Source of the DNA: Acidimicrobiia bacterium | GTDB taxonomy: Bacteria > Actinomycetota > Acidimicrobiia > Spongiisociales > ZC4RG35 | NCBI GenBank assembly: GCA_965203555.1 | Contig: CBDBCY010000004.1 | Span: forward strand, 160,001-224,000 | Direction: 5' to 3' | DNA length: 64,000 bases | Shown: positions 127 through 55,635 of the stretch, piece by piece | Layout: each line of letters starts with the position of its first letter | How positions within the stretch are numbered: the stretch's first letter is position 1 | The notes under the pieces: model-generated | What the model was told of the DNA's origin: nothing | The model's input: the letters and a program-made list of their open reading frames with translations, nothing else | Databases searched by the model: none | Program-made: the position numbers and the translations under genes

Positions 127-2244
127 GTGGCTGCTGACCGAGGGCATCGTCTCCTGCGCATGCGTCAGGTGCCCCTGAGTCGCACCCGCAATATCGGAAT
201 CATGGCCCACATCGATGCAGGAAAGACCACTCTGACCGAGCGGATTCTTTACTACACCGGTCGCAACTACAAAATCGGGGAGGTCCACGAGGGCGCCGCC
301 ACCATGGATTGGATGGCACAGGAGCAGGAGCGGGGAATCACCATCACCTCTGCCGCCACCACCTGTATCTGGCACGATCACAGCATCAACATCATCGACA
401 CTCCGGGTCATGTCGATTTCACCGTCGAGGTGGAACGTAGTCTTCGAGTCCTGGATGGGGCGGTGGCGGTATTCGACGGGGTGGCGGGAGTGGAACCACA
501 GTCGGAGACGGTGTGGCGGCAGGCCGACCGCTACGAAGTTCCCCGCATCTGCTTCATCAACAAACTCGACCGACTGGGGGCGGACTTCTTCGCCGATGTG
601 GAATCGATCCGCACCCGACTCAACGCAACACCTCTGGTGGTCCAACTGCCCGTGGGTGAGGAGAGTGATTTCCGAGGTGTTCTGGACCTGGTGGAAATGC
701 AGATTCACGAGTGGCGGGGGGACGACGGCAGGCACTGGGACACCGGCGACATCCCCGAATCGATGCAGGACCTGGCTTATGAATACCGGGCGCGGATGTT
801 GGAGCAGGTAGCCGAGGTTGACGAGAAACTCCTGATCAAGTTCCTCGAAGATCTGTACATAACCCCCGACGAGATCCGAACCGCTATCCGTACGGGGGTG
901 CTTCAGCACATGTTCGTGCCGGTGCTTTGTGGTGCGGCCTTCAAGAACAAGGGAGTGCAGCCGCTGCTTGACGCCATTGTCCACTATCTGCCCAGCCCCT
1001 TGGACCTTCCTCCGGTGAAGGGTTTCGCCCCCAAGAATCCGGAACAGGTTCTGGAACGGAAGGCCAATGACGACGAGCCATTTTCGGCTCTCGCCTTCAA
1101 GATCATGAGCGATCCCCACGTCGGCAAGCTCACCTATTTCCGGGTCTATTCGGGCTCGGTCTCCAAGGGCGGCGCGGTGTTCAATACCACCAACGGCAAG
1201 AAGGAGCGCCTGGGACGGCTGCTTCGCATGCATGCCAACCATCGTGAGGATGTCAACATTGTTTACACCGGTGACATCGTGGCGGCGGTGGGATTGCGAC
1301 ACACCACCACCGGCGACACCCTTTCCGGTGTCGGTCACCCCATCAGCCTGGAATCGATGGCCTTTCCCGCGCCGGTTATCTGGGTAGCCATCGAGCCTCG
1401 CACCAGGGTTGACCAGGACAAGTTGTCCGAGTCCCTGCAAAAGCTGTCGGAGGAGGACCCGACCTTTCTGGTGAGAAGTGACGAAGAGACCGGGCAAACC
1501 ATCATCTCGGGAATGGGCGAGCTCCACCTGGAGGTATTGGTGGACCGGCTGATCCGGGAATTCAAGGTCGCGGCCAACATCGGTAAGCCGCAGGTCGCCT
1601 ATCGAGAATCAATCCTGTCGGCCGTAGAGAAAGTGGAAGGCCGTTACGTCCGCCAGAGTGGCGGCCGGGGTCAGTACGGTCATGTCGTCATCGACATCGA
1701 ACCCACCGGTCCCGGAGGAGGTTACGAATTCGTCAACAAGATCAGGGGCGGTCGCGTCCCCCGTGAATACATTCCGGCGGTGGCCGCCGGCATCGGAGAG
1801 GCTCTCGATGGGGGTATCCTGGCGGGCTACCCGGTGGTGGATGTGCGGGTCACCCTGGTTGACGGTTCACATCATGAAGTAGATTCTTCCGAACTGGCCT
1901 TTCGGATAGCCGGTTCCATGGCTGTTCGCGCCGCCACCAACAAGGCGGGGCTGAAACTGCTGGAGCCGGTGATGGAAGTCGAGGTGGTCACTCCCGACGA
2001 GTACATGGGAGACGTGATCGCCGACATTTCCGCTCGCCGGGGCCGTATTGGAGAAACCGATCAGCGGGGATCGGCCCGGCTAATCACCGCCGCCGTACCG
2101 CTGGCCGCAATGTTCGGCTTTGCTACTGATATCCGGTCCAGGACTCAGGGGCGAGCAACGTATTCGATGCAATTCAAGGCTTACCAAGATGTTCCTGACT
2201 CTATTTGTCAGGACATCCTTCATTTGAGAACTGGTAAGTATTAG
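127..2244 (+). CDS. fusA: Elongation factor G
   Basis: [41 protein letters not shown] motifs. Alternative start ATG at 160. Confidence 0.98.
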
Positions 2245-3465
2245 AAATGGGGGTGTTTGGTTGTGGGTAAGGTGAGGTTTGAGCGGGTGAAGCCGCATTT
2301 GAATGTGGGTACTATGGGTCATATTGATCATGGGAAGACTACGTTGACTGCTGCGATTACTAGGGTGTTGTCTGAGCGGGTTGGTGGGGTGAATGTGGTG
2401 ACTGGGTTTGATGATATTGATCGTGCTCCTGAGGAGCGTGAGCGGGGTATTACGATTCAGATTGCGCATGTTGAGTATGAGACTGTTTTGCGTCATTATG
2501 CGCATGTGGATATGCCGGGGCATGCGGATTATATTAAGAATATGATTACGGGGGCGGCTCAGGTGGATGGGGCGGTGTTGGTGGTGTCGGCGGTTGATGG
2601 TCCGATGCCGCAGACTCGTGAGCATGTGTTGTTGGCGCGGCAGGTGGGTGTGCCGCGGATTGTGGTGTTTTTGAATAAGTGTGATTTGGTGGATGATGGT
2701 GAGTTGTTGGATTTGGTGGAGTTGGAGGTTCGGGATTTGTTGACGGAGTATGAGTTTCCGGGTGATGATGTTCCGGTGGTGAGGGGTTCGGCGTTGTTGG
2801 CGTTGGAGGGTGATGTGGTGGCTGGTGATGGGGTTATGGAGTTGATGGATGCGGTTGATGGGTATGTTGATGTGCCGGTTCGGGATGTGGATCGTCCGTT
2901 TTTGATGCCGATTGAGGATGTGTTTTCGATTACTGGTCGGGGTACGGTGGTGACTGGTCGGGTTGAGCAGGGTGTGTTGCGGGTTGGTGAGGCGGTTGAG
3001 GTGGTTGGTTTGCGTGATACGCGTGGGTCGGTGGCTACTGGTGTGGAGATGTTTAGGAAGTTGTTGGATGAGGGTCGGGCTGGTGATAATGTGGGGGTGT
3101 TGTTGCGGGGGGTGGGGAAGTCGGAGGTGGAGCGTGGTCAGGTGTTGGCTGCTCCTGGGTCGATTTTGCCGCATGTGGGTTTTGAGGCGCAGGTGTATGT
3201 GTTGACGAAGGAGGAGGGGGGGAGGCATAATCCGTTTTTTTCGGGTTATCGTCCGCAGTTTTATTTTCGGACTACGGATGTGACGGGTTCGGTGTTGTTG
3301 CCTGTTGGGGTGCAGATGGTGATGCCGGGTGATAATGTGGAGTTGTCGGTGGAGTTGATTGCTCCGATTGCGATGTCGGTGGGGTTGGATTTCGCGATTC
3401 GTGAGGGTGGTCGGACTGTGGGGGCGGGTCGGGTCACCAAGATCACCAAATAACCCCAAACCCAA
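2243..3465 (+). repeat. Direct repeat copy A (tuf with short flanks), matches 38381-39605
   Basis: Same sequence from 'agaaatgggggtgtttggttgtggg' to 'taacccc(cc)aaacccaa'. Sense, antisense and shifted-frame translations in the ORF track are identical over the shared span. Confidence 0.97.
2263..3453 (+). CDS. tuf: Elongation factor Tu, copy 1
   Basis: [40 protein letters not shown] at 2263 matches the usual N-terminus (the ORF track starts at TTG 2257). Confidence 0.98.
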
Positions 3466-3543
3466 GAAGGCAAAGGATTGTGGACAACAACCGGCAAGGG
3501 CAAGTAGAGAATAAGCCGAGCAAGCGAGGACAGTAGAAGAGAC

Positions 3544-3855
3544 ATGAACGGTTCCCATAAGATCCGCATAAAGCTCAAGGCTTATGACCATCAGAGTGTG
3601 GATGAGTCAGCGCGCAAGATCGCTGCTACGGTTACTCGTACCCAGGCCAAAATAAGAGGTCCTGTTCCGTTGCCTACCGAGATCCACAGATACTGCGTTA
3701 TACGCGGACCCCATGTCGATAAAGACTCCCGGGAACACTTCGAGATGCGCATTCATAAGCGGTTGATCGATATCTTGGATCCAACCGCTAAAACGGTTGA
3801 TTCATTGATGCGCCTTGATCTTCCTTCCGGAGTGGAAGTAGAGATAAAGCTGTGA
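3544..3855 (+). CDS. rpsJ: 30S ribosomal protein S10
   Basis: [35 protein letters not shown]. Confidence 0.98.
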
Positions 3856-22890: not shown

Positions 22891-22944
22891 GAAAGGAGGA
22901 ATTTCCCACCCCACAACTCGGCGTGCAGCGGAGTTATCTCACAA

Positions 22945-23106
22945 CAAACAAGCGCCAGGCCTCTTGAACCGCCGGTCGGCGGATTCCGGAGGTGACGAGG
23001 AGGAAGGCGATCGAATCTTTCGGCGGATGCCTTTCCGGCCACCACAGTCGTGACGATCGGAGCAAATCCCGCCGGTAACGGCGGGGACAAAAGACGGTCG
23101 AAGTGG
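22945..23106 (+). ncRNA. glmS ribozyme (glucosamine-6-phosphate-activated self-cleaving riboswitch)
   Basis: AGCGCCAG at 22951, P1 stem, GACGAGG, ATCGAA...TTCGGCGGATG core, and P4 hairpin CAAATCCCGCCGGTAACGGCGGGGACAAA, all directly 5' of glmS. Confidence 0.9.
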
Positions 23107-23156
23107 AGCGTTCCGCAATGCGCGCGCAGAGGGGGTTTGTGGAAATTGGCGCGATC

Positions 23157-38063: not shown

Positions 38064-38145
38064 GCCGGGATACCCAAGCGGCCAAAGGGAGCAGACTGTA
38101 AATCTGCCGGCGATGCCTTCGGAGGTTCAAATCCTTCTCCCGGCA
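38064..38145 (+). tRNA. tRNA-Tyr(GTA)
   Basis: Acceptor GCCGGGA/TCCCGGC, anticodon loop CT-GTA-AA, long variable arm, GGTTCAAATCC. Confidence 0.95.
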
Positions 38146-38169
38146 CCGGCTTTCCCGCAAAGACCAAGC

Positions 38170-38243
38170 GCCCCCTTAGCTCAGACGGCCAGAGCGCCTC
38201 CATGGTAAGGAGGAGGTCTCCGGTTCGAATCCGGAAGGGGGCT
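38170..38243 (+). tRNA. tRNA-Thr(GGT)
   Basis: Acceptor GCCCCCT/AGGGGGC, anticodon arm CCTCC-AT-GGT-AA-GGAGG, GGTTCGAATCC. Confidence 0.95.
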
Positions 38244-38275
38244 CCCCCGTGCGGCCCGCGCCGACTACGGGTAAA

Positions 38276-38349
38276 GGCGGCGTAGCTCAGTTGGTAAGAG
38301 CGCTCGACTCATAATCGAGAGGTCGGCAGTTCAAGTCTGCCCGCCGCTA
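38276..38349 (+). tRNA. tRNA with CAT anticodon (probably elongator Met)
   Basis: Acceptor GGCGGCG/CGCCGCT, CTCGA-CT-CAT-AA-TCGAG, AGTTCAAGTCT. Confidence 0.92.
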
Positions 38350-38380
38350 CATGGAACCAAAGACAGCTATCGATAAATAC

Positions 38381-39605
38381 AGAAATGGGGGTGTTTGGTT
38401 GTGGGTAAGGTGAGGTTTGAGCGGGTGAAGCCGCATTTGAATGTGGGTACTATGGGTCATATTGATCATGGGAAGACTACGTTGACTGCTGCGATTACTA
38501 GGGTGTTGTCTGAGCGGGTTGGTGGGGTGAATGTGGTGACTGGGTTTGATGATATTGATCGTGCTCCTGAGGAGCGTGAGCGGGGTATTACGATTCAGAT
38601 TGCGCATGTTGAGTATGAGACTGTTTTGCGTCATTATGCGCATGTGGATATGCCGGGGCATGCGGATTATATTAAGAATATGATTACGGGGGCGGCTCAG
38701 GTGGATGGGGCGGTGTTGGTGGTGTCGGCGGTTGATGGTCCGATGCCGCAGACTCGTGAGCATGTGTTGTTGGCGCGGCAGGTGGGTGTGCCGCGGATTG
38801 TGGTGTTTTTGAATAAGTGTGATTTGGTGGATGATGGTGAGTTGTTGGATTTGGTGGAGTTGGAGGTTCGGGATTTGTTGACGGAGTATGAGTTTCCGGG
38901 TGATGATGTTCCGGTGGTGAGGGGTTCGGCGTTGTTGGCGTTGGAGGGTGATGTGGTGGCTGGTGATGGGGTTATGGAGTTGATGGATGCGGTTGATGGG
39001 TATGTTGATGTGCCGGTTCGGGATGTGGATCGTCCGTTTTTGATGCCGATTGAGGATGTGTTTTCGATTACTGGTCGGGGTACGGTGGTGACTGGTCGGG
39101 TTGAGCAGGGTGTGTTGCGGGTTGGTGAGGCGGTTGAGGTGGTTGGTTTGCGTGATACGCGTGGGTCGGTGGCTACTGGTGTGGAGATGTTTAGGAAGTT
39201 GTTGGATGAGGGTCGGGCTGGTGATAATGTGGGGGTGTTGTTGCGGGGGGTGGGGAAGTCGGAGGTGGAGCGTGGTCAGGTGTTGGCTGCTCCTGGGTCG
39301 ATTTTGCCGCATGTGGGTTTTGAGGCGCAGGTGTATGTGTTGACGAAGGAGGAGGGGGGGAGGCATAATCCGTTTTTTTCGGGTTATCGTCCGCAGTTTT
39401 ATTTTCGGACTACGGATGTGACGGGTTCGGTGTTGTTGCCTGTTGGGGTGCAGATGGTGATGCCGGGTGATAATGTGGAGTTGTCGGTGGAGTTGATTGC
39501 TCCGATTGCGATGTCGGTGGGGTTGGATTTCGCGATTCGTGAGGGTGGTCGGACTGTGGGGGCGGGTCGGGTCACCAAGATCACCAAATAACCCCCCAAA
39601 CCCAA
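38381..39605 (+). repeat. Direct repeat copy B (tuf with short flanks), matches 2243-3465
   Basis: Offset 36,138 bp; the only difference I could see is a C-run of 6 vs 4 after the stop codon. Confidence 0.97.
38401..39591 (+). CDS. tuf: Elongation factor Tu, copy 2
   Basis: Protein identical to copy 1; tRNA-tuf-rpmG-secE context. Confidence 0.98.
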
Positions 39606-39656
39606 AGACTGACGCCAATAGCGCAAGAAGCCAGGACGTAAGAAAGAAAGCAACCG

Positions 39657-39848
39657 ATGCCAAGTGACAAGAGACCCCCGGTGAAACTTGCCTGCACCGA
39701 GTGCAAGCGGCGCAACTACGTGACCACCCGCGGCAGGGCGAACCAGCACGACAAGGCGCAGCGCCGCAACCTCGTGCGAGGCCGGTTGGTGCTTCGCAAG
39801 TACTGTCGGTGGTGCCGCATTCACACTTCCCACCGGGAAACGCGATAG
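39657..39848 (+). CDS. rpmG: 50S ribosomal protein L33 (C+), with internal insertion
   Basis: [11 protein letters not shown]...[18 protein letters not shown]. Confidence 0.94.
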
Positions 39849-39889
39849 GCCAGGCCAAGGCGTCTGCTTCCAAGGGGGTGGCCGGCCAG

Positions 39890-40744
39890 ATGACTCTCGC
39901 CGATCTGGAGGGCATGGTTTTCGGGCCCGAGCCCCTGCGGGTTTCCAGGGACCGCGTCGCCGCCTACGTGGAGGTAACCGGCGACCAACCCGATCGATGG
40001 GGCGATGTCGCTCCGCCCGGCATGGCCGGCGCCGCGTTGTTTGCGGTAGCTCCCACGTTGCTTTCTCATCCGGCGGTTATGGCCGAGGGCGGTGCGGCGA
40101 TTCACGGGGAGCAGGTCTTCATATGGAAGGCCCCACTTCAGGCGGAGGCAACCTGGTCGGTGGTAGGTGAGGTCAAGCGGGTGCGACATCGTCGGGGCGT
40201 CTGGTTTGTGGACTTTTCCGCAGCCGTCGCCGACTCCCATGGCGGGACAATGGTGGAGGGCAGGTCTTCTTTCCTGATCGCCGGAGGTAGCCCGCCGGCT
40301 CGGAGCGGGACGGTGGATACCGAACCGCCTCCCCATCACCGTGCCGACAACCGACCGGCGTCCGGCGCCGACCTTCCCGAGGTGGGCTGTGAGACTCCCA
40401 CGCTCTCCAAATCGGCGAGTCGTGCGGATCTGATTCGCTACGCCGCGGTCACCAGGGATTGGAATCCGATCCACTGGGATCATCAGTCGGCGGTGGGAGC
40501 GGGGCTTCCGGGCGTGGTGGTGCACGGATTGGCCTGCGCAGCCTGGATGTGCCAGGGCGTCACCCGGTTGCTGGACGGAGAGGCGCCCATTGGTAGAGCC
40601 AAGTTCCGGTTTCGGCGGCCGCTACGCCCCGCGGTGTCCGCGCAGGTGGAGGGCAGGCGGACCGGTGAAGACCGGTTCGCAATGCGTTTGGTCTCGGAAG
40701 GACACGTTCTCATCACAGCCACGATGGAGACGGCGCTCCATTAG
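39890..40744 (+). CDS. Double hot-dog MaoC-type (R)-specific dehydratase (HadA/HadB-like fusion)
   Basis: N-terminal half with IHGEQ.F; C-terminal half with RYAAVTRDWNPIHWD...GLPGVVVHG hydratase-2 motif. Confidence 0.85.
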   Translation: MTLADLEGMVFGPEPLRVSRDRVAAYVEVTGDQPDRWGDVAPPGMAGAALFAVAPTLLSHPAVMAEGGAAIHGEQVFIWKAPLQAEATWSVVGEVKRVRHRRGVWFVDFSAAVADSHGGTMVEGRSSFLIAGGSPPARSGTVDTEPPPHHRADNRPASGADLPEVGCETPTLSKSASRADLIRYAAVTRDWNPIHWDHQSAVGAGLPGVVVHGLACAAWMCQGVTRLLDGEAPIGRAKFRFRRPLRPAVSAQVEGRRTGEDRFAMRLVSEGHVLITATMETALH

Positions 40745-52729: not shown

Positions 52730-52964
52730 TCATCCCCTAGACTTACCTGCAGGCTCCAACCTTCGGTTCTCAGTCTAGGAGCTAGACGAGGTCGAGGGCG
52801 TCCCACTGGCGGTCGGCCAGGCCTTCTTCCATCGCTGGGGTGTGCAAACTGAGCCACTACCCGGCCGAGCAGGGCAGGTATGATATTAGTGTGATTCTTA
52901 GGCTGATGTTATGACTTGTTGTGATGTGTTGCTGGCGCCGCATTTGGGTTCGTTTTGAGGTGAT

Positions 52965-55365
52965 GTGTTGGAGTTGTCTGAGGGCTTGGTGACGGAGGGT
53001 GAAGCCGGTTTGCGGGAACGGCTTTATAGGTTGAGCCGGGCGAGTCTGCGTATTAATGAGAGTCTGGATTTTGATTCGGTGCTTCAGGGTGCTTTGGATT
53101 CGGCTTGTTCGTTGACTGGCGCCCGTTATGGGGTGATGGCTATGTTGGATGGCGGGGGGCGGGTGGGGGACTTTTTGTCGTCGGGATTGAGCGGTGAGCA
53201 GGCCGAACAGCTCTGGCAGACCCCCCAGAGGTGGGAAATATTCGAGCGTTTGGGCCGCGTGTCCGTACCTTTGCGTGTTCCTGACCTGGTGGGCCATGTG
53301 AGGTCTTTGGGGTTTGACGGGTTCCGTCTGCCCTTGGCGGGCGGGTCGGTGTGGCCGTTTTTGGCGTCGCCGATGTTCCATGGTACCGAGCGGGTAGGTA
53401 ATGTCTTTTTGGCCGGGCGGGTGGACGGGGCCGAGTTCAGCGGGGAGGACGAGCAGACTCTGGTGATGTTCGCTTCTCAGGCGGCGTTGGTGATTGCTAA
53501 CGCCCGGCGGCATCTTGAAGAGCGGCGGGCCCGGGCCGCCTTGGAGACGCTGATCGATACTTCTCCGGTGGGTGTGGTGGTGTTCGATGCCGTGTCCGGA
53601 GCGCCTAAGTCTTTCAATCGGGAAGCGCGGAGGATCGCGGACAGCCTGGCGGACTCCGATCAGTCTCCTGAGATGCTCTTGGACGTGATCACCTGCAGGC
53701 GGGCCGATGGGCGGGAGGTTTCCTTGCGGGAGTTTCCGTTGGCCGAGTTGCTGAGCGCGGGGGAGACGCTGCGGGCCGAGGAGATTGTCTTGGCGGTTCC
53801 CGACGGGCGCTGTGTCACGGTGCTGTTAAACGCGACGCCGATCTTCTCCGATGCGGGCGAGGTGGAGTCGGCGGTGGTGACGCTCCAGGACATGGCCGAC
53901 GTGGAGGAGTTGGAGCGCCTACGGGCCGAGTTTTTGGCCATGGTCAGCCACGAGTTGCGGGCGCCCTTGACCTCCATCAAGGGTTCCACTGCCACGGTGC
54001 TGGATTCGCCCGTGGACCTGGACCCGGCCGTGGTCCGCCAGTTTTTCCGTATCATTTCCGAGCAGGCCGATCACATGCACGGCCTGGTGTCCGATCTCCT
54101 GGACGTAGCTCGGATCGAGACGGGCACGCTGGCGGTCGGTCCCGAACCGGCGGAGGTGGCCATGCTGGTGGAGCGGGCGAGGCGTGCTTTCACGGGTGGT
54201 GGGGGCCGGAACGACCTGGCCATCGACATCGAGCCCGGTCTTCCGCTGGTGATGGCGGACCGGCGGCGAATCCTCCAGGTGCTGGTCAACCTGCTGACCA
54301 ACGCGGCCCGCCACTCCCCGCGGCCGTCGGTCATCACGATAACCGCCACCCGCGACGGGACACATGTGGCCGTCTCGGTAGTCGACGAGGGGCGGGGCAT
54401 CCCGGCCGAGAGCCTGCCCGGTTTGTTCCGGAAGTTCTCCGCGGCGAAGTCCGAGGAACCGGGCGGGGACACCGGGCTGGGCCTGGCGATCTGCAGAGGG
54501 ATAGTAGAGGCCCACGGGGGACGCATCTGGGCCGAGAGCGACGGCCCGGACCTCGGCGCCCGTTTCACCTTCACCCTGCCCACAGTGGAACCAACCAGCG
54601 GCGCAACAGCCGGTGCTCGCCCGCCGTCATCGAGGCGCTTGTCCCGCGGGCAGCAAGAGACGGGAGAAGGGGTGCGGGTACTGGCGGTGGACGACGACCC
54701 CAGAGACCTCCGGTACGTCCAGGACACCCTCATCCAGTCGGGATACGCTCCCACGGTAACCGGGGACCCCGAGGAAGCGCTCCGTCTCATGGAAGAGGAC
54801 CGGCCCCGGCTGGTGCTGCTGGACCTCATGCTCCCCGGGACAGACGGCATCAAGCTGATGGGAGAGATCCTGAACACCGCGGACGTGCCGGTCATCTTCC
54901 TCTCCGCCTACGGCAGGGACGACCTCATCGCCGAAGCTCTCAACAAAGGCGCCTCCGACTACGTCCTCAAGCCCTTCTCGCCAACAGAGCTGACAGCAAG
55001 AATCGGAGCGGCCCTCCGCCGCAGCGCCCGTCCCCGAGCCCCTGGAGCCATACCAACTGGGCGACCTGACCATCAACTACCCCGAACGCAGAGTGACCCT
55101 AGCCGACCGGCCCGTGCACCTCCTCCCAATGGAATACCGAATGCTCACCGCGCTCTCGACCAGCGCCGGACGGGTACTCACCTACAAACAACTGCTAAAC
55201 CGAGTGTGGGAGGACAAAGAAAGCCGCGACCTGCGACCCATGCGCACCATTGTCCGCAAACTCCGACAAAAACTAAACGACGACGCCCGCAACCCCACCT
55301 ACATCTTCACCGAACCCCGCGTCGGCTACCGAATGCCAAAAGGAGAGAAAAGAAAAACGCACTGA
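52965..55365 (+). CDS. Soluble hybrid GAF-PAS-histidine kinase-receiver-winged-helix protein; +1 frameshift at ~55028
   Basis: H-box VSHELRAPLT, N-box NLLTNA, G-boxes DEGRGI and GTGLGL, receiver DDD...LLDLMLP...KPF. The KdpE/OmpR-type DNA-binding domain (EYRML...VLTYKQLL..VW...PTYIFTEPRVGY) continues in another frame. Confidence 0.85.
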
Positions 55366-55635
55366 CCCAGTCAGATAACCCTGCGATGAGGTTCTGCTCA
55401 TATTTTGCGGACCGTGGCGGCGAACTTGTCCGCGACTGGGTGCGGGCACTATCCAACCACTCGTCTTCTGTGATCTCTCCACGCTTAGCAGCGCCGGCGA
55501 GAATCCGCCTCGTTGGCCCTGCCGCCGTTCACTCCTGTCTACATGCCTACCAGCATGCAAAGATGGTGTGACACCCCAACCCCACACCCCAACCTGTGAA
55601 AAAGACGCTAGCCGGCCAAGCCTGCGGCAGACATG

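Follow-up and report, generated by a model that had tools for sequence, protein, structure and literature searches.

Introduction

The closest described system to the one analyzed here is the pair of genes for elongation factor Tu (EF-Tu), tufA and tufB, whose concerted evolution by gene conversion was reportedly described by Lathe and Bork in 2001. In Salmonella the two genes are found in a fusA-tuf and a tRNA-tuf locus, are near-identical within a genome and diverged between species, and their identity is bounded by the gene. These properties are shared by the tuf pair that we analyzed in a 64,000-nucleotide (nt) stretch of DNA (G000:C4:160001-224000, called the window throughout) from the genome (G000; 3.42 Mb, 62% G+C, four contigs, 95% complete) of a sponge- and coral-associated actinobacterium. 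The two systems differ in that conversion in Salmonella starts uniformly and runs both ways, with no compositional consequence reported in the accessible part of Paulsson et al. 2017 (PMC5485169), whereas the tuf genes of the window show a polar, strand-specific enrichment of G and T which reaches 98.5% of the silent sites, and their protein is altered.

The bias described below would resemble GC-biased gene conversion as a recombination-linked, non-adaptive fixation bias in which disfavoured alleles are commoner among transient than among fixed differences, but GC-biased conversion favours G+C on either strand, while here G+T is favoured on one strand and the direction reverses along the tract. 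GC-biased conversion, known from eukaryotes and, in a report ascribed to Lassalle et al. in 2015, from bacteria, is able to fix non-synonymous changes; biases of this type can outweigh codon usage and, as here, carry amino acid changes into a constrained gene. Another related process is directional mutation pressure, which shapes protein composition in AT-rich endosymbionts and in the strand-asymmetric genes of vertebrate mitochondria. There, as here, the bias extends beyond silent sites to the first two codon positions and shifts the amino acid usage of variable residues, while conserved sites resist; the key difference is that such pressure acts on a whole genome or strand, whereas here a 1.2-kb tract plus other repeats are affected. 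As to mismatch repair, EndoMS/NucS is described in the available portion of PMC6159521 as cleaving G/T, G/G, and T/T mismatches, and according to the portion of PMC11551744 at hand, dG-dG, dG-dT, and dT-dT mispairs made by an annealed single strand in Mycobacterium smegmatis are corrected within about 5-6 nt, while dA-dC, dC-dC, dA-dA, dT-dC, and dA-dG mispairs become mutations. The substrates G:T, G:G, and T:T against the non-substrates A:C, C:C, and A:A form the same axis as the one found here. A compositional footprint of NucS in duplicated genes is not reported in the consulted parts of these two papers, and a 2026 preprint on Mycobacterium tuberculosis states, in its available part, that recombination-linked NucS asymmetry could reshape the composition of paralogues (PMC13061034). 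Full-text literature searching found no published description of the phenomenon reported here, which may be mentioned in supplementary files; new in this work are the test of the claim on the protein, the keto-amino axis, the convergence, the 5'-to-3' polarity, the extension to repeats, and the NucS hypothesis.

Amino acid replacements in EF-Tu

Based on the comparisons described below, we have very little doubt that the EF-Tu protein encoded in the window was really reshaped by a G/T pressure, as had been claimed in the initial annotation of this DNA. In what follows K denotes G+T (the keto bases), M denotes A+C (the amino bases), and K3 the G+T share at third codon positions. The protein is encoded twice in the window:

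2263..3453, + strand: tufA coding sequence; EF-Tu of 396 amino acids, GTG start, TAA stop (3451-3453), G or T at 390 of 396 third positions
38401..39591, + strand: tufB coding sequence; encodes the identical protein, K3 0.985

The tufA protein is a predicted elongation factor Tu: it matches NCBIfam TIGR00485 over residues 1-395 with 687.8 bits in comparison to a cut-off of 522.4, all three Pfam domains (PF00009 GTP_EFTU, PF03144 GTP_EFTU_D2, and PF03143 GTP_EFTU_D3) are above their gathering scores, and the GTG start at 2263 aligns with the Met of relatives. Its GTPase motifs G1, G3, G4, and G5, which we take to be GHxDHGKT, DxPGH, NKxD, and SAL, respectively, align with the same motifs in 14 relatives.

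Protein and nucleotide changes were judged by comparing living sequences and carry no ordering of events in time; the counts exclude the unpublished genomes G027, G038, and G184, and since related genomes are not independent, counts across relatives carry kinship. The comparator for the skewed tuf genes was G059, a member of the same family (f1) with an unskewed EF-Tu, and a second lineage pair was G133 versus G145. Six peptide examples from the initial annotation were compared with unskewed relatives of four families and two outgroup actinobacteria, and all six held. The relatives' N-terminal peptide MAKEKFERTKPH is altered in G000, the new form beginning (M); AITK(V/T)L is replaced by AITRVL, DDEELL by DDGELL, ALKALEG by ALLALEG, and PHT(D/E)FE by PHVGFE; and the YIPxPERDTEKPF region is replaced by an altered stretch of 13 residues. 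The residues of G000 are thus not those carried by relatives with unskewed tuf genes.

The direction of these changes was determined by counting. At codon positions 1 and 2, G000 has G or T where G059 has A or C at 98 sites, and the reverse is found at 6 sites (binomial p = 1.6e-22), in comparison to 21:28, 33:23, 20:25, 16:25, and 21:28 in five control pairs of unskewed genes. For the amino acid replacements between G000 and G059, 57 gain G/T, 3 lose G/T, and 15 are neutral, in comparison to 55:5:11 for G133 versus G145, which is the direction that had been predicted; with the control pairs symmetric, the results bear out the claim that the bias is strong enough to fix amino acid changes in EF-Tu. 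The commonest replacements were I>V (7), E>V (6), T>V (6), K>R (4), and M>L (3). The comparison of Val and Gly content gave the anticipated result, with Val rising from 10.4% to 16.4% and Gly from 9.5% to 11.9%; Leu and Arg rose from 6.6% to 8.6% and from 5.6% to 7.6%, respectively, while Lys fell from 5.2% to 2.5%, Ile from 6.3% to 4.0%, Thr from 8.1% to 5.8%, and Glu from 9.4% to 7.3%. At its variable residues the protein gains Val, Gly, Leu (encoded by TTG), and Arg at the expense of Lys, Ile, Thr, Glu, Asn, and Gln.

In the 193 columns that are at least 95% conserved among 71 diverse bacteria, G000 differs at only 3 (I105V, I247V, and E351Q), in comparison to 1 or 2 for the unskewed G217 and G059. 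Together with the retained GTPase motifs this agrees with the earlier statement that the motifs are intact and that purifying selection is still acting: the variable residues are rewritten, while selection preserves the conserved core together with the GTPase motifs.

The effect on the protein depends on the degree of skew. Across 118 tuf genes the G+T shares of positions 1 and 2 (K1 and K2) climb with K3 (Spearman 0.89 and 0.63, respectively), and the rise at position 2 is found only in the top class, where K2 is 0.54 at K3 of at least 0.96 in comparison to 0.46-0.48 below. For nine pairs with K3 of 0.82-0.95, the replacements gaining and losing G/T were 15:5, 24:11, 12:13, 12:14, 25:17, 17:9, 20:25, 18:15, and 12:10, which are mostly not directional, while the synonymous first-position changes of the same pairs (Leu CTN to TTG, and Arg) were 15-25 versus 0-1. 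The effect on the protein is therefore clear only at extreme skew, K3 of at least 0.96, and the protein is altered only after the silent sites are saturated.

Composition of the tuf genes and their surroundings

At the third positions of tufA, A accounts for 0.5%, C for 1.3%, G for 57.7%, and T for 40.6%; A or C is found at the end of codons 377, 391, 392, 394, 395, and 396 only, and all 34 Leu codons are TTG. The genome-wide mean K3 is 0.505 (sd 0.076) for 19,400 open reading frames (ORFs) of at least 60 amino acids, and among ORFs longer than 107 amino acids the two tuf ORFs (0.985) alone exceed 0.85. The tuf G+C content of 0.54 is below that of the flanks and of the genome (0.62), with C as the most depleted base. 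The features needed to place the skew are as follows:

2243..3465, + strand: identity (gene-conversion) tract, copy A; extends 20 nt upstream of the start codon and 12 nt downstream of the stop codon, with the skew starting at its left edge
38381..39605, + strand: identity tract, copy B; differs from copy A by 2 gap columns and 0 mismatches
2243..2262, + strand: common G/T-rich leader, G+T 0.80, containing a GGGGG ribosome-binding stretch
3433..3465, + strand: 3' polarity reversal, GTC ACC AAG ATC ACC AAA, the stop codon, then a 12-nt extension of A and C only
127..2244, + strand: fusA (EF-G), upstream neighbour; unskewed comparator, K3 0.50
3544..3855, + strand: rpsJ (S10), downstream neighbour; unskewed comparator, K3 0.56
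38064..38350, + strand: tRNA-Tyr, tRNA-Thr, and tRNA-Met, directly upstream of tufB (tufB-type locus)
2080..3591, - strand: stop-free antisense frame of 503 codons, without Pfam match; not a gene

The two tuf loci are identical across approximately 1,225 nt. In both copies the skew sets in within approximately 100 nt at the left edge of the tract, begins within approximately 20 nt of the start codon, and ends just before the stop codon, and the highly expressed neighbours are unskewed (fusA 0.50, rpsJ 0.56, rplC 0.57, and rplD within 0.50-0.57). The G/T pressure of the initial annotation is therefore confirmed for the tuf tract and, in weaker form, for other repeats (see below), and not as a property of the genome: a genome-wide pressure was ruled out, the mean G+T of unique DNA being 0.50. 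The stop-free antisense frames that lie over both tuf copies (the one across tufB spans window positions 38347-39915 on the - strand, 522 codons) are found there because the complementary strand is A/C-rich.

Twelve species of the genus, whose assemblies consist of 1 to 240 contigs, have K3 of 0.975-0.992 and differ from one another by 2-6% in protein; in other genera of the order K3 ranged from 0.39 to 0.98. Across bacteria the mean tuf K3 was 0.527 (sd 0.118, 80 loci), and values greater than 0.72 were found only in Acidimicrobiia, as were tuf genes with K3 more than 0.24 above that of the flanking genes (79 loci across bacteria). Strong skew outside Acidimicrobiia was looked for among the same 79 loci and rejected: in four loci of other phyla tuf is 0.15-0.22 above its flanks, with G only enriched and T not raised, and this mild G-only enrichment is treated as a different effect. 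Third tuf genes were seen in two genomes. The one in G105 (L189 = G105:C13:172221-174205) is divergent, has three in-frame TGA codons and a K3 of 0.815, and is probably a decaying copy, and the one in G025 (L190 = G025:C1:1-1231) is 69% identical, with a K3 of 0.28 and C-rich third positions.

Contigs containing the tuf stretch were found in runs of 15 sponge, coral, and marine metagenome studies, with at least half of the sampled words present in six runs. RNA libraries from two studies are among them, and in one of these the contigs match the window exactly; this is only weak evidence of tuf expression. Transcript ends and levels cannot be read from such contig cover; a contig of X15 extends 143 nt upstream of the identity tract, which may be read-through from the tRNAs or library DNA. 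An Rfam search near both tuf genes gave only the three tRNAs by tufB and no element at either tuf, and scans for consensus promoters and terminators at both copies yielded intragenic sites only, at about the level of shuffled sequence, which are uninformative on the transcription unit. In 103 of 201 genomes of the order there is no full-length tuf in the assembly, many retaining no more than 40-residue pieces at the ends of contigs; short-read assemblies break at the identical duplicate, so that such bins often lack this universal marker.

Keto-amino axis of the changes and convergence in the EF-Tu tree

The initial annotation had ascribed the replacements to C>T and A>G changes. Both are strongly directional at positions 1 and 2 in comparison to G059 (gain:loss 33:4 and 34:2, respectively), which supports that part of the claim, but they are not the only axis, as the transversions A>T (23:0) and C>G (8:0) are equally one-way. 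The interchanges that are neutral for G+T are balanced, 5:3 for G/T and 7:6 for A/C. At four-fold sites with C in the relative, G is found in G000 42 times and T 28 times, and the relative's C is met by G oftener than by T in 7 of 8 pairs. Third-position variation among 12 congeners consists of 118 G/T interchanges and only 13 changes involving A or C, in comparison to 4-9 and 160-198, respectively, for the same count in two unskewed genera. Similarly, strain differences in the RNA-library contigs are mostly G/T interchanges which keep the frame (22 of 31 in X15). The constraint acts on the class of base, keto (G/T) versus amino (A/C), and not on particular codons, and therefore rules out tRNA-based codon selection and simple deamination.

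A second family, f10, provides a replicate. A group of its genera has K3 of 0.95-0.98, and G133 was compared above with an unskewed member of this family, G145. In the EF-Tu tree, a maximum-likelihood FastTree topology without bootstrap whose support values are weaker, the window's genus leaves its own family f1 and sits beside the f10 group. All nine columns which unite the genus with this f10 group are G/T-gaining and none is neutral (K>R three, I>V three, plus M>L, Q>G, and T>V). The f10 group also has ten private changes, of which five lose K, and the window's genus has none of the ten. The likeness of the genus and the f10 group is thus convergence and not transfer, the f10 state having been reached independently. 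The distortion of tuf-based phylogenies that had been foreseen is therefore observed.

Near-identical gene pairs, polarity, and other repeats

The skew appears tied to near-identical tuf pairs, being seen almost only with them. Among two-copy genomes, 49 of 52 have pairs with an identity of 98% or more whose tracts begin 0-25 nt upstream of the start codon, and K3 is 0.68-0.99 in 48 of these 49 genomes, the exception being G030 (0.56). The diverged pairs of G059 (87%), G101 (85%), and G227 (85%) are unskewed, while that of G187, from a 370-contig assembly, is 89% identical yet skewed. The single-copy genes of G139, G146, G198, and G217 (1-9 contigs) and of G224 (a reported complete chromosome) are unskewed, with K3 of 0.38-0.51. 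Since unskewed lineages are nested in skewed clades of families f1, f2, f10, f11, and f12, the association of skew and duplicate recurs, with the reservation that relatives are not independent. A converting pair looks close to necessary, and not sufficient, for the skew.

Differences between the two copies of a genome were compared with those between species. Within genomes, third-position differences were K/M 45 times and K/K 26 times (73 differences, G030 excluded), in comparison to 183 K/M and 445 K/K among the third positions that vary from species to species in skewed clades (odds ratio 4.2, p = 3e-8). Letters private to one copy, as judged by the nearest relatives, were K>M 32 times, M>K 11 times, and K>K 25 times. 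Alleles with A or C thus arise but are under-represented in divergence, which points to a fixation bias, either biased conversion or selection.

The bias also has a polarity. In all skewed classes K3 declines along tuf towards the 3' end: the class of 0.60-0.80 goes from 0.93 to 0.29, and G064 from 1.0 to 0.15, which is under the unskewed baseline of approximately 0.42. Across lineages the skew ceases approximately 30 nt short of the stop codon, the last 30 nt of tuf having a G+T of 0.44 in comparison to 0.68 in the body, and five of the last six codons of the window's tufA end in C or A. The shared 3' extensions of the genus (6-30 nt) have a G+T of 0.00 in 8 of 10 sharing pairs and of 0.03 and 0.11 in the rest, and two further pairs of the genus share no 3' extension. 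In several families a shared stretch with 6-9 nt tandem repeats (for example AGTCACC or GGTACT units) follows the tuf stop codon (L220, L222, L235, L240, and L239/L241).

The same polarity was found in other repeats, which make up 5.8% of the G000 genome, in a survey covering G000, two relatives, and six Escherichia coli insertion sequence (IS) families. The gradient was measured as the G/T richness of the first third versus the last third, which is unchanged by reverse complement, so that a positive value means that each strand is G/T-rich at its own 5' side. In G000 it was positive in 81 of 85 repeat intervals (800-3,500 nt) and 20 of 22 families, with a mean of 0.149 in comparison to 0.001 (sd 0.046) for 2,000 unique intervals. 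Within single ORFs of IS elements K3 goes from 0.7-0.8 down to 0.1-0.4, and the K3 gradient of repeat ORFs was 0.145 in comparison to 0.022 for 1,629 unique genes. IS copies of two relatives with a single unskewed tuf have a gradient of the same sign (0.14-0.15), whereas the six E. coli K-12 IS families differ (-0.10 to +0.055). Next after tuf among long ORFs, with K3 of 0.73-0.76, are three genes for substrate-binding lipoproteins which carry an exact in-frame tandem duplication of approximately 1 kb and lie outside the window:

G000:C4:2036360-2038603: lipoprotein gene
G000:C4:2313922-2315982: lipoprotein gene
G000:C4:1196610-1198787: lipoprotein gene

The bias reverses within one transcript and is found on both strands of mobile elements, and is therefore not explained by transcription or by selection on a single mRNA.

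Alternative explanations

Translational selection on codon usage was rejected as a candidate, as fusA, rpsJ, rplC, and rplD have K3 of only 0.50-0.57, the 118 third-position flips between G and T among congeners are free, and amino acids are changed too. Transcription-associated deamination would let the exposed non-template strand of heavily transcribed tuf genes gain C>T and A>G changes, and it accounts for the G/T-rich strand being the sense strand, for the two directional transitions, and for a skew that starts approximately 20 nt from the start codon in both copies of a stretch present in RNA libraries of two studies. We nevertheless regard it as quite improbable, since the transversions are equally directional and C at four-fold sites is met by G oftener than by T, third positions are C-rich as usual in the single-copy orthologues of sister genera, whose expression is surely as high, fusA and the ribosomal protein genes are unskewed, and the bias reverses at the 3' end within one transcription unit and takes opposite polarity in the two halves of repeats. 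On these grounds the pressure on tuf would be neither translational selection nor simple deamination. Selection on the mRNA is somewhat less improbable than deamination. It would favour a C- and A-poor message that escapes Rho, folds less, or resists sequence-specific RNases, with the A/C tail as a Rho loading site; Rho loads on C-rich, G-poor RNA. G is indeed far above C in the body of the message and the tail of the genus is pure A/C, and an excess of C over G together with YC dinucleotides is given in the available part of PMC6144790 as the main descriptors of Rho-dependent terminators. Predicted folding energies were -0.31 to -0.37 kcal/mol/nt in 9 of 10 skewed genes (the tenth, G025 with K3 of 0.86, gave -0.41) in comparison to -0.40 to -0.48 for nine unskewed genes, although the weaker folding partly reflects the lower G+C (0.54 versus 0.61-0.68), and the contrast of differences within and between genomes fits selection as well as biased conversion. 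The depletion of A is left unexplained by such selection, as is the same polarity on both strands of IS elements and in the tandem halves of single ORFs, and neither the tie to near-identical duplicates nor the normal codons of single-copy relatives would follow from it. A pairing of the G/T leader with the A/C tail at the 5' and 3' ends of the mRNA, with 12 of 13 positions pairable by eye, was dropped without a covariation test because the tails vary freely among congeners and keep only their A/C composition.

The remaining alternatives concern the origin of the sequence itself. An odd tuf acquired horizontally could have spread in the order and overwritten the residents by conversion, so that the replacements would come from the donor; this agrees with the grouping of the genus with f10 in the EF-Tu tree and with the confinement of the skew to the converted block. 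We give it little credence, as all nine uniting columns are G/T-gaining and the ten f10-specific changes, some of them G/T-losing, are absent from the genus, the skew takes graded values of 0.68-0.99 and declines within the gene from 5' to 3' instead of forming a block, and among the 80 loci across bacteria no candidate donor outside Acidimicrobiia lies above K3 0.71. To an artefact of assembly, polishing, or sequencing we attach practically no weight: although the window comes from the assembly of an uncultured organism, no support for an artefact was found, the same state is seen in 12 species with assemblies of 1 to 240 contigs and in runs from 15 studies, the frame, domains, and GTPase motifs are intact, and the strain differences are mostly frame-keeping G/T interchanges. 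The initial annotation was right in arguing against this explanation.

Probable link to recombination between repeats and the possible role of NucS

As the best overall explanation we lean towards a remodelling of EF-Tu by a strand-polar, recombination-linked G/T bias on the tuf identity tract. Its central element, the link of the G/T pressure to recombination between repeats, is probably correct. As proposed, gene conversion between the copies would carry a strand-polar bias, each strand becoming enriched in G/T starting at the 5' tract edge and in A/C in the direction of the 3' one, and in tuf the 5'-side process would prevail almost to the stop codon.

A molecular cause is possibly to be found in NucS, the mismatch system of Actinomycetota that lack MutS, although we hold this to be doubtful. 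The G000 genome encodes a match to PF01939 (NucS_C, 119 bits, C4:1017027-1017377), and no match to MutS_V (PF00488) was found in this 95%-complete genome. The classes of change coincide with the NucS substrates, the keto-gaining types being directional and the keto-neutral types balanced. Each K-versus-M difference would give a keto:keto or an amino:amino mismatch depending on the strand exchanged, while K-neutral differences would give mixed mismatches either way. In what is the most speculative step, NucS would correct only one of the two possible heteroduplexes for each difference between A/C and G/T. Should the incoming strand usually be the same one, its A/C alleles would be accepted and its G/T alleles rejected, so that this strand would drift towards A/C and its complement towards G/T; 3'-ended strands entering at the tract edges would then give each strand a G/T-rich 5' side and an A/C-rich 3' side. 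Such a model would reproduce the axis, the free interchange of G and T, and the strand polarity.

Several observations weigh against this explanation. A converting pair is insufficient, as shown by G226 (99.0% identical, K3 0.40), G030 (99.4%, 0.56), and G223 (99.3%, 0.64). A second copy may also not be strictly required: for six of ten seemingly single skewed genes (G020, G130, G167, G207, G090, and G222) no trace of a second copy was found in fragmentary assemblies, which could be due to recent loss or incomplete assembly. The contrast of differences within and between genomes is weakened by saturation and non-independence. Seven of about ten genes with tandem 1-kb duplications are not skewed on the sense strand, a single-copy Val-rich gene of 388 amino acids outside the window (C4:1295343-1296509) has a K3 of 0.755 with no duplicate in the genome, and the strongly skewed genes are all co-oriented with transcription and with replication, so that these factors are inseparable here. 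As to NucS, it is present throughout Actinomycetota while strong skew is found in one order only, and a further lineage-specific factor is therefore needed; G226, a NucS-bearing genome, and G030 have converting pairs but no skew. The NucS model also leaves the dominance of the 5' side in tuf unexplained, and the sign of the polarity is not derivable from first principles. The broadest proposition, that NucS-reliant bacteria may have a previously unseen strand-polar, keto-biased conversion drive which polarises all repeats (G/T at the 5' and A/C at the 3' side of each strand), comes close to fixation in stably oriented duplicates such as tuf, where it overrides codon usage, and rewrites approximately 15% of EF-Tu residues convergently in separate families, is for us rather more unlikely than likely and somewhat more doubtful still than NucS itself as the cause.

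Other features of the window

A glmS ribozyme/riboswitch was identified at window positions 22940-23110 (Rfam RF00234, 86.7 bits). A unique G/T-rich stretch at 52877-53196 (G+T 0.74), for which no repeat partner was found, spans the gap before and the first codons of an 868-amino-acid ORF (52965-55571) which resembles a sensor kinase by eye only.

Significance

The tuf gene is a common phylogenetic and barcoding marker, and it gives a wrong placement in this order because the informative columns are convergent. Skewed tuf genes will similarly be misread by methods in which codon usage serves to detect foreign DNA or to estimate expression. The results describe a non-adaptive, DNA-level process that overrides selection on the sequence of EF-Tu, a second family having undergone the same on its own. 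If NucS is indeed involved, these genomes would provide a natural, genome-scale read-out of how a MutS-independent mismatch system treats recombination intermediates, which is currently studied only with engineered oligonucleotides, and the process would be a second kind of biased gene conversion beside the GC-biased one.

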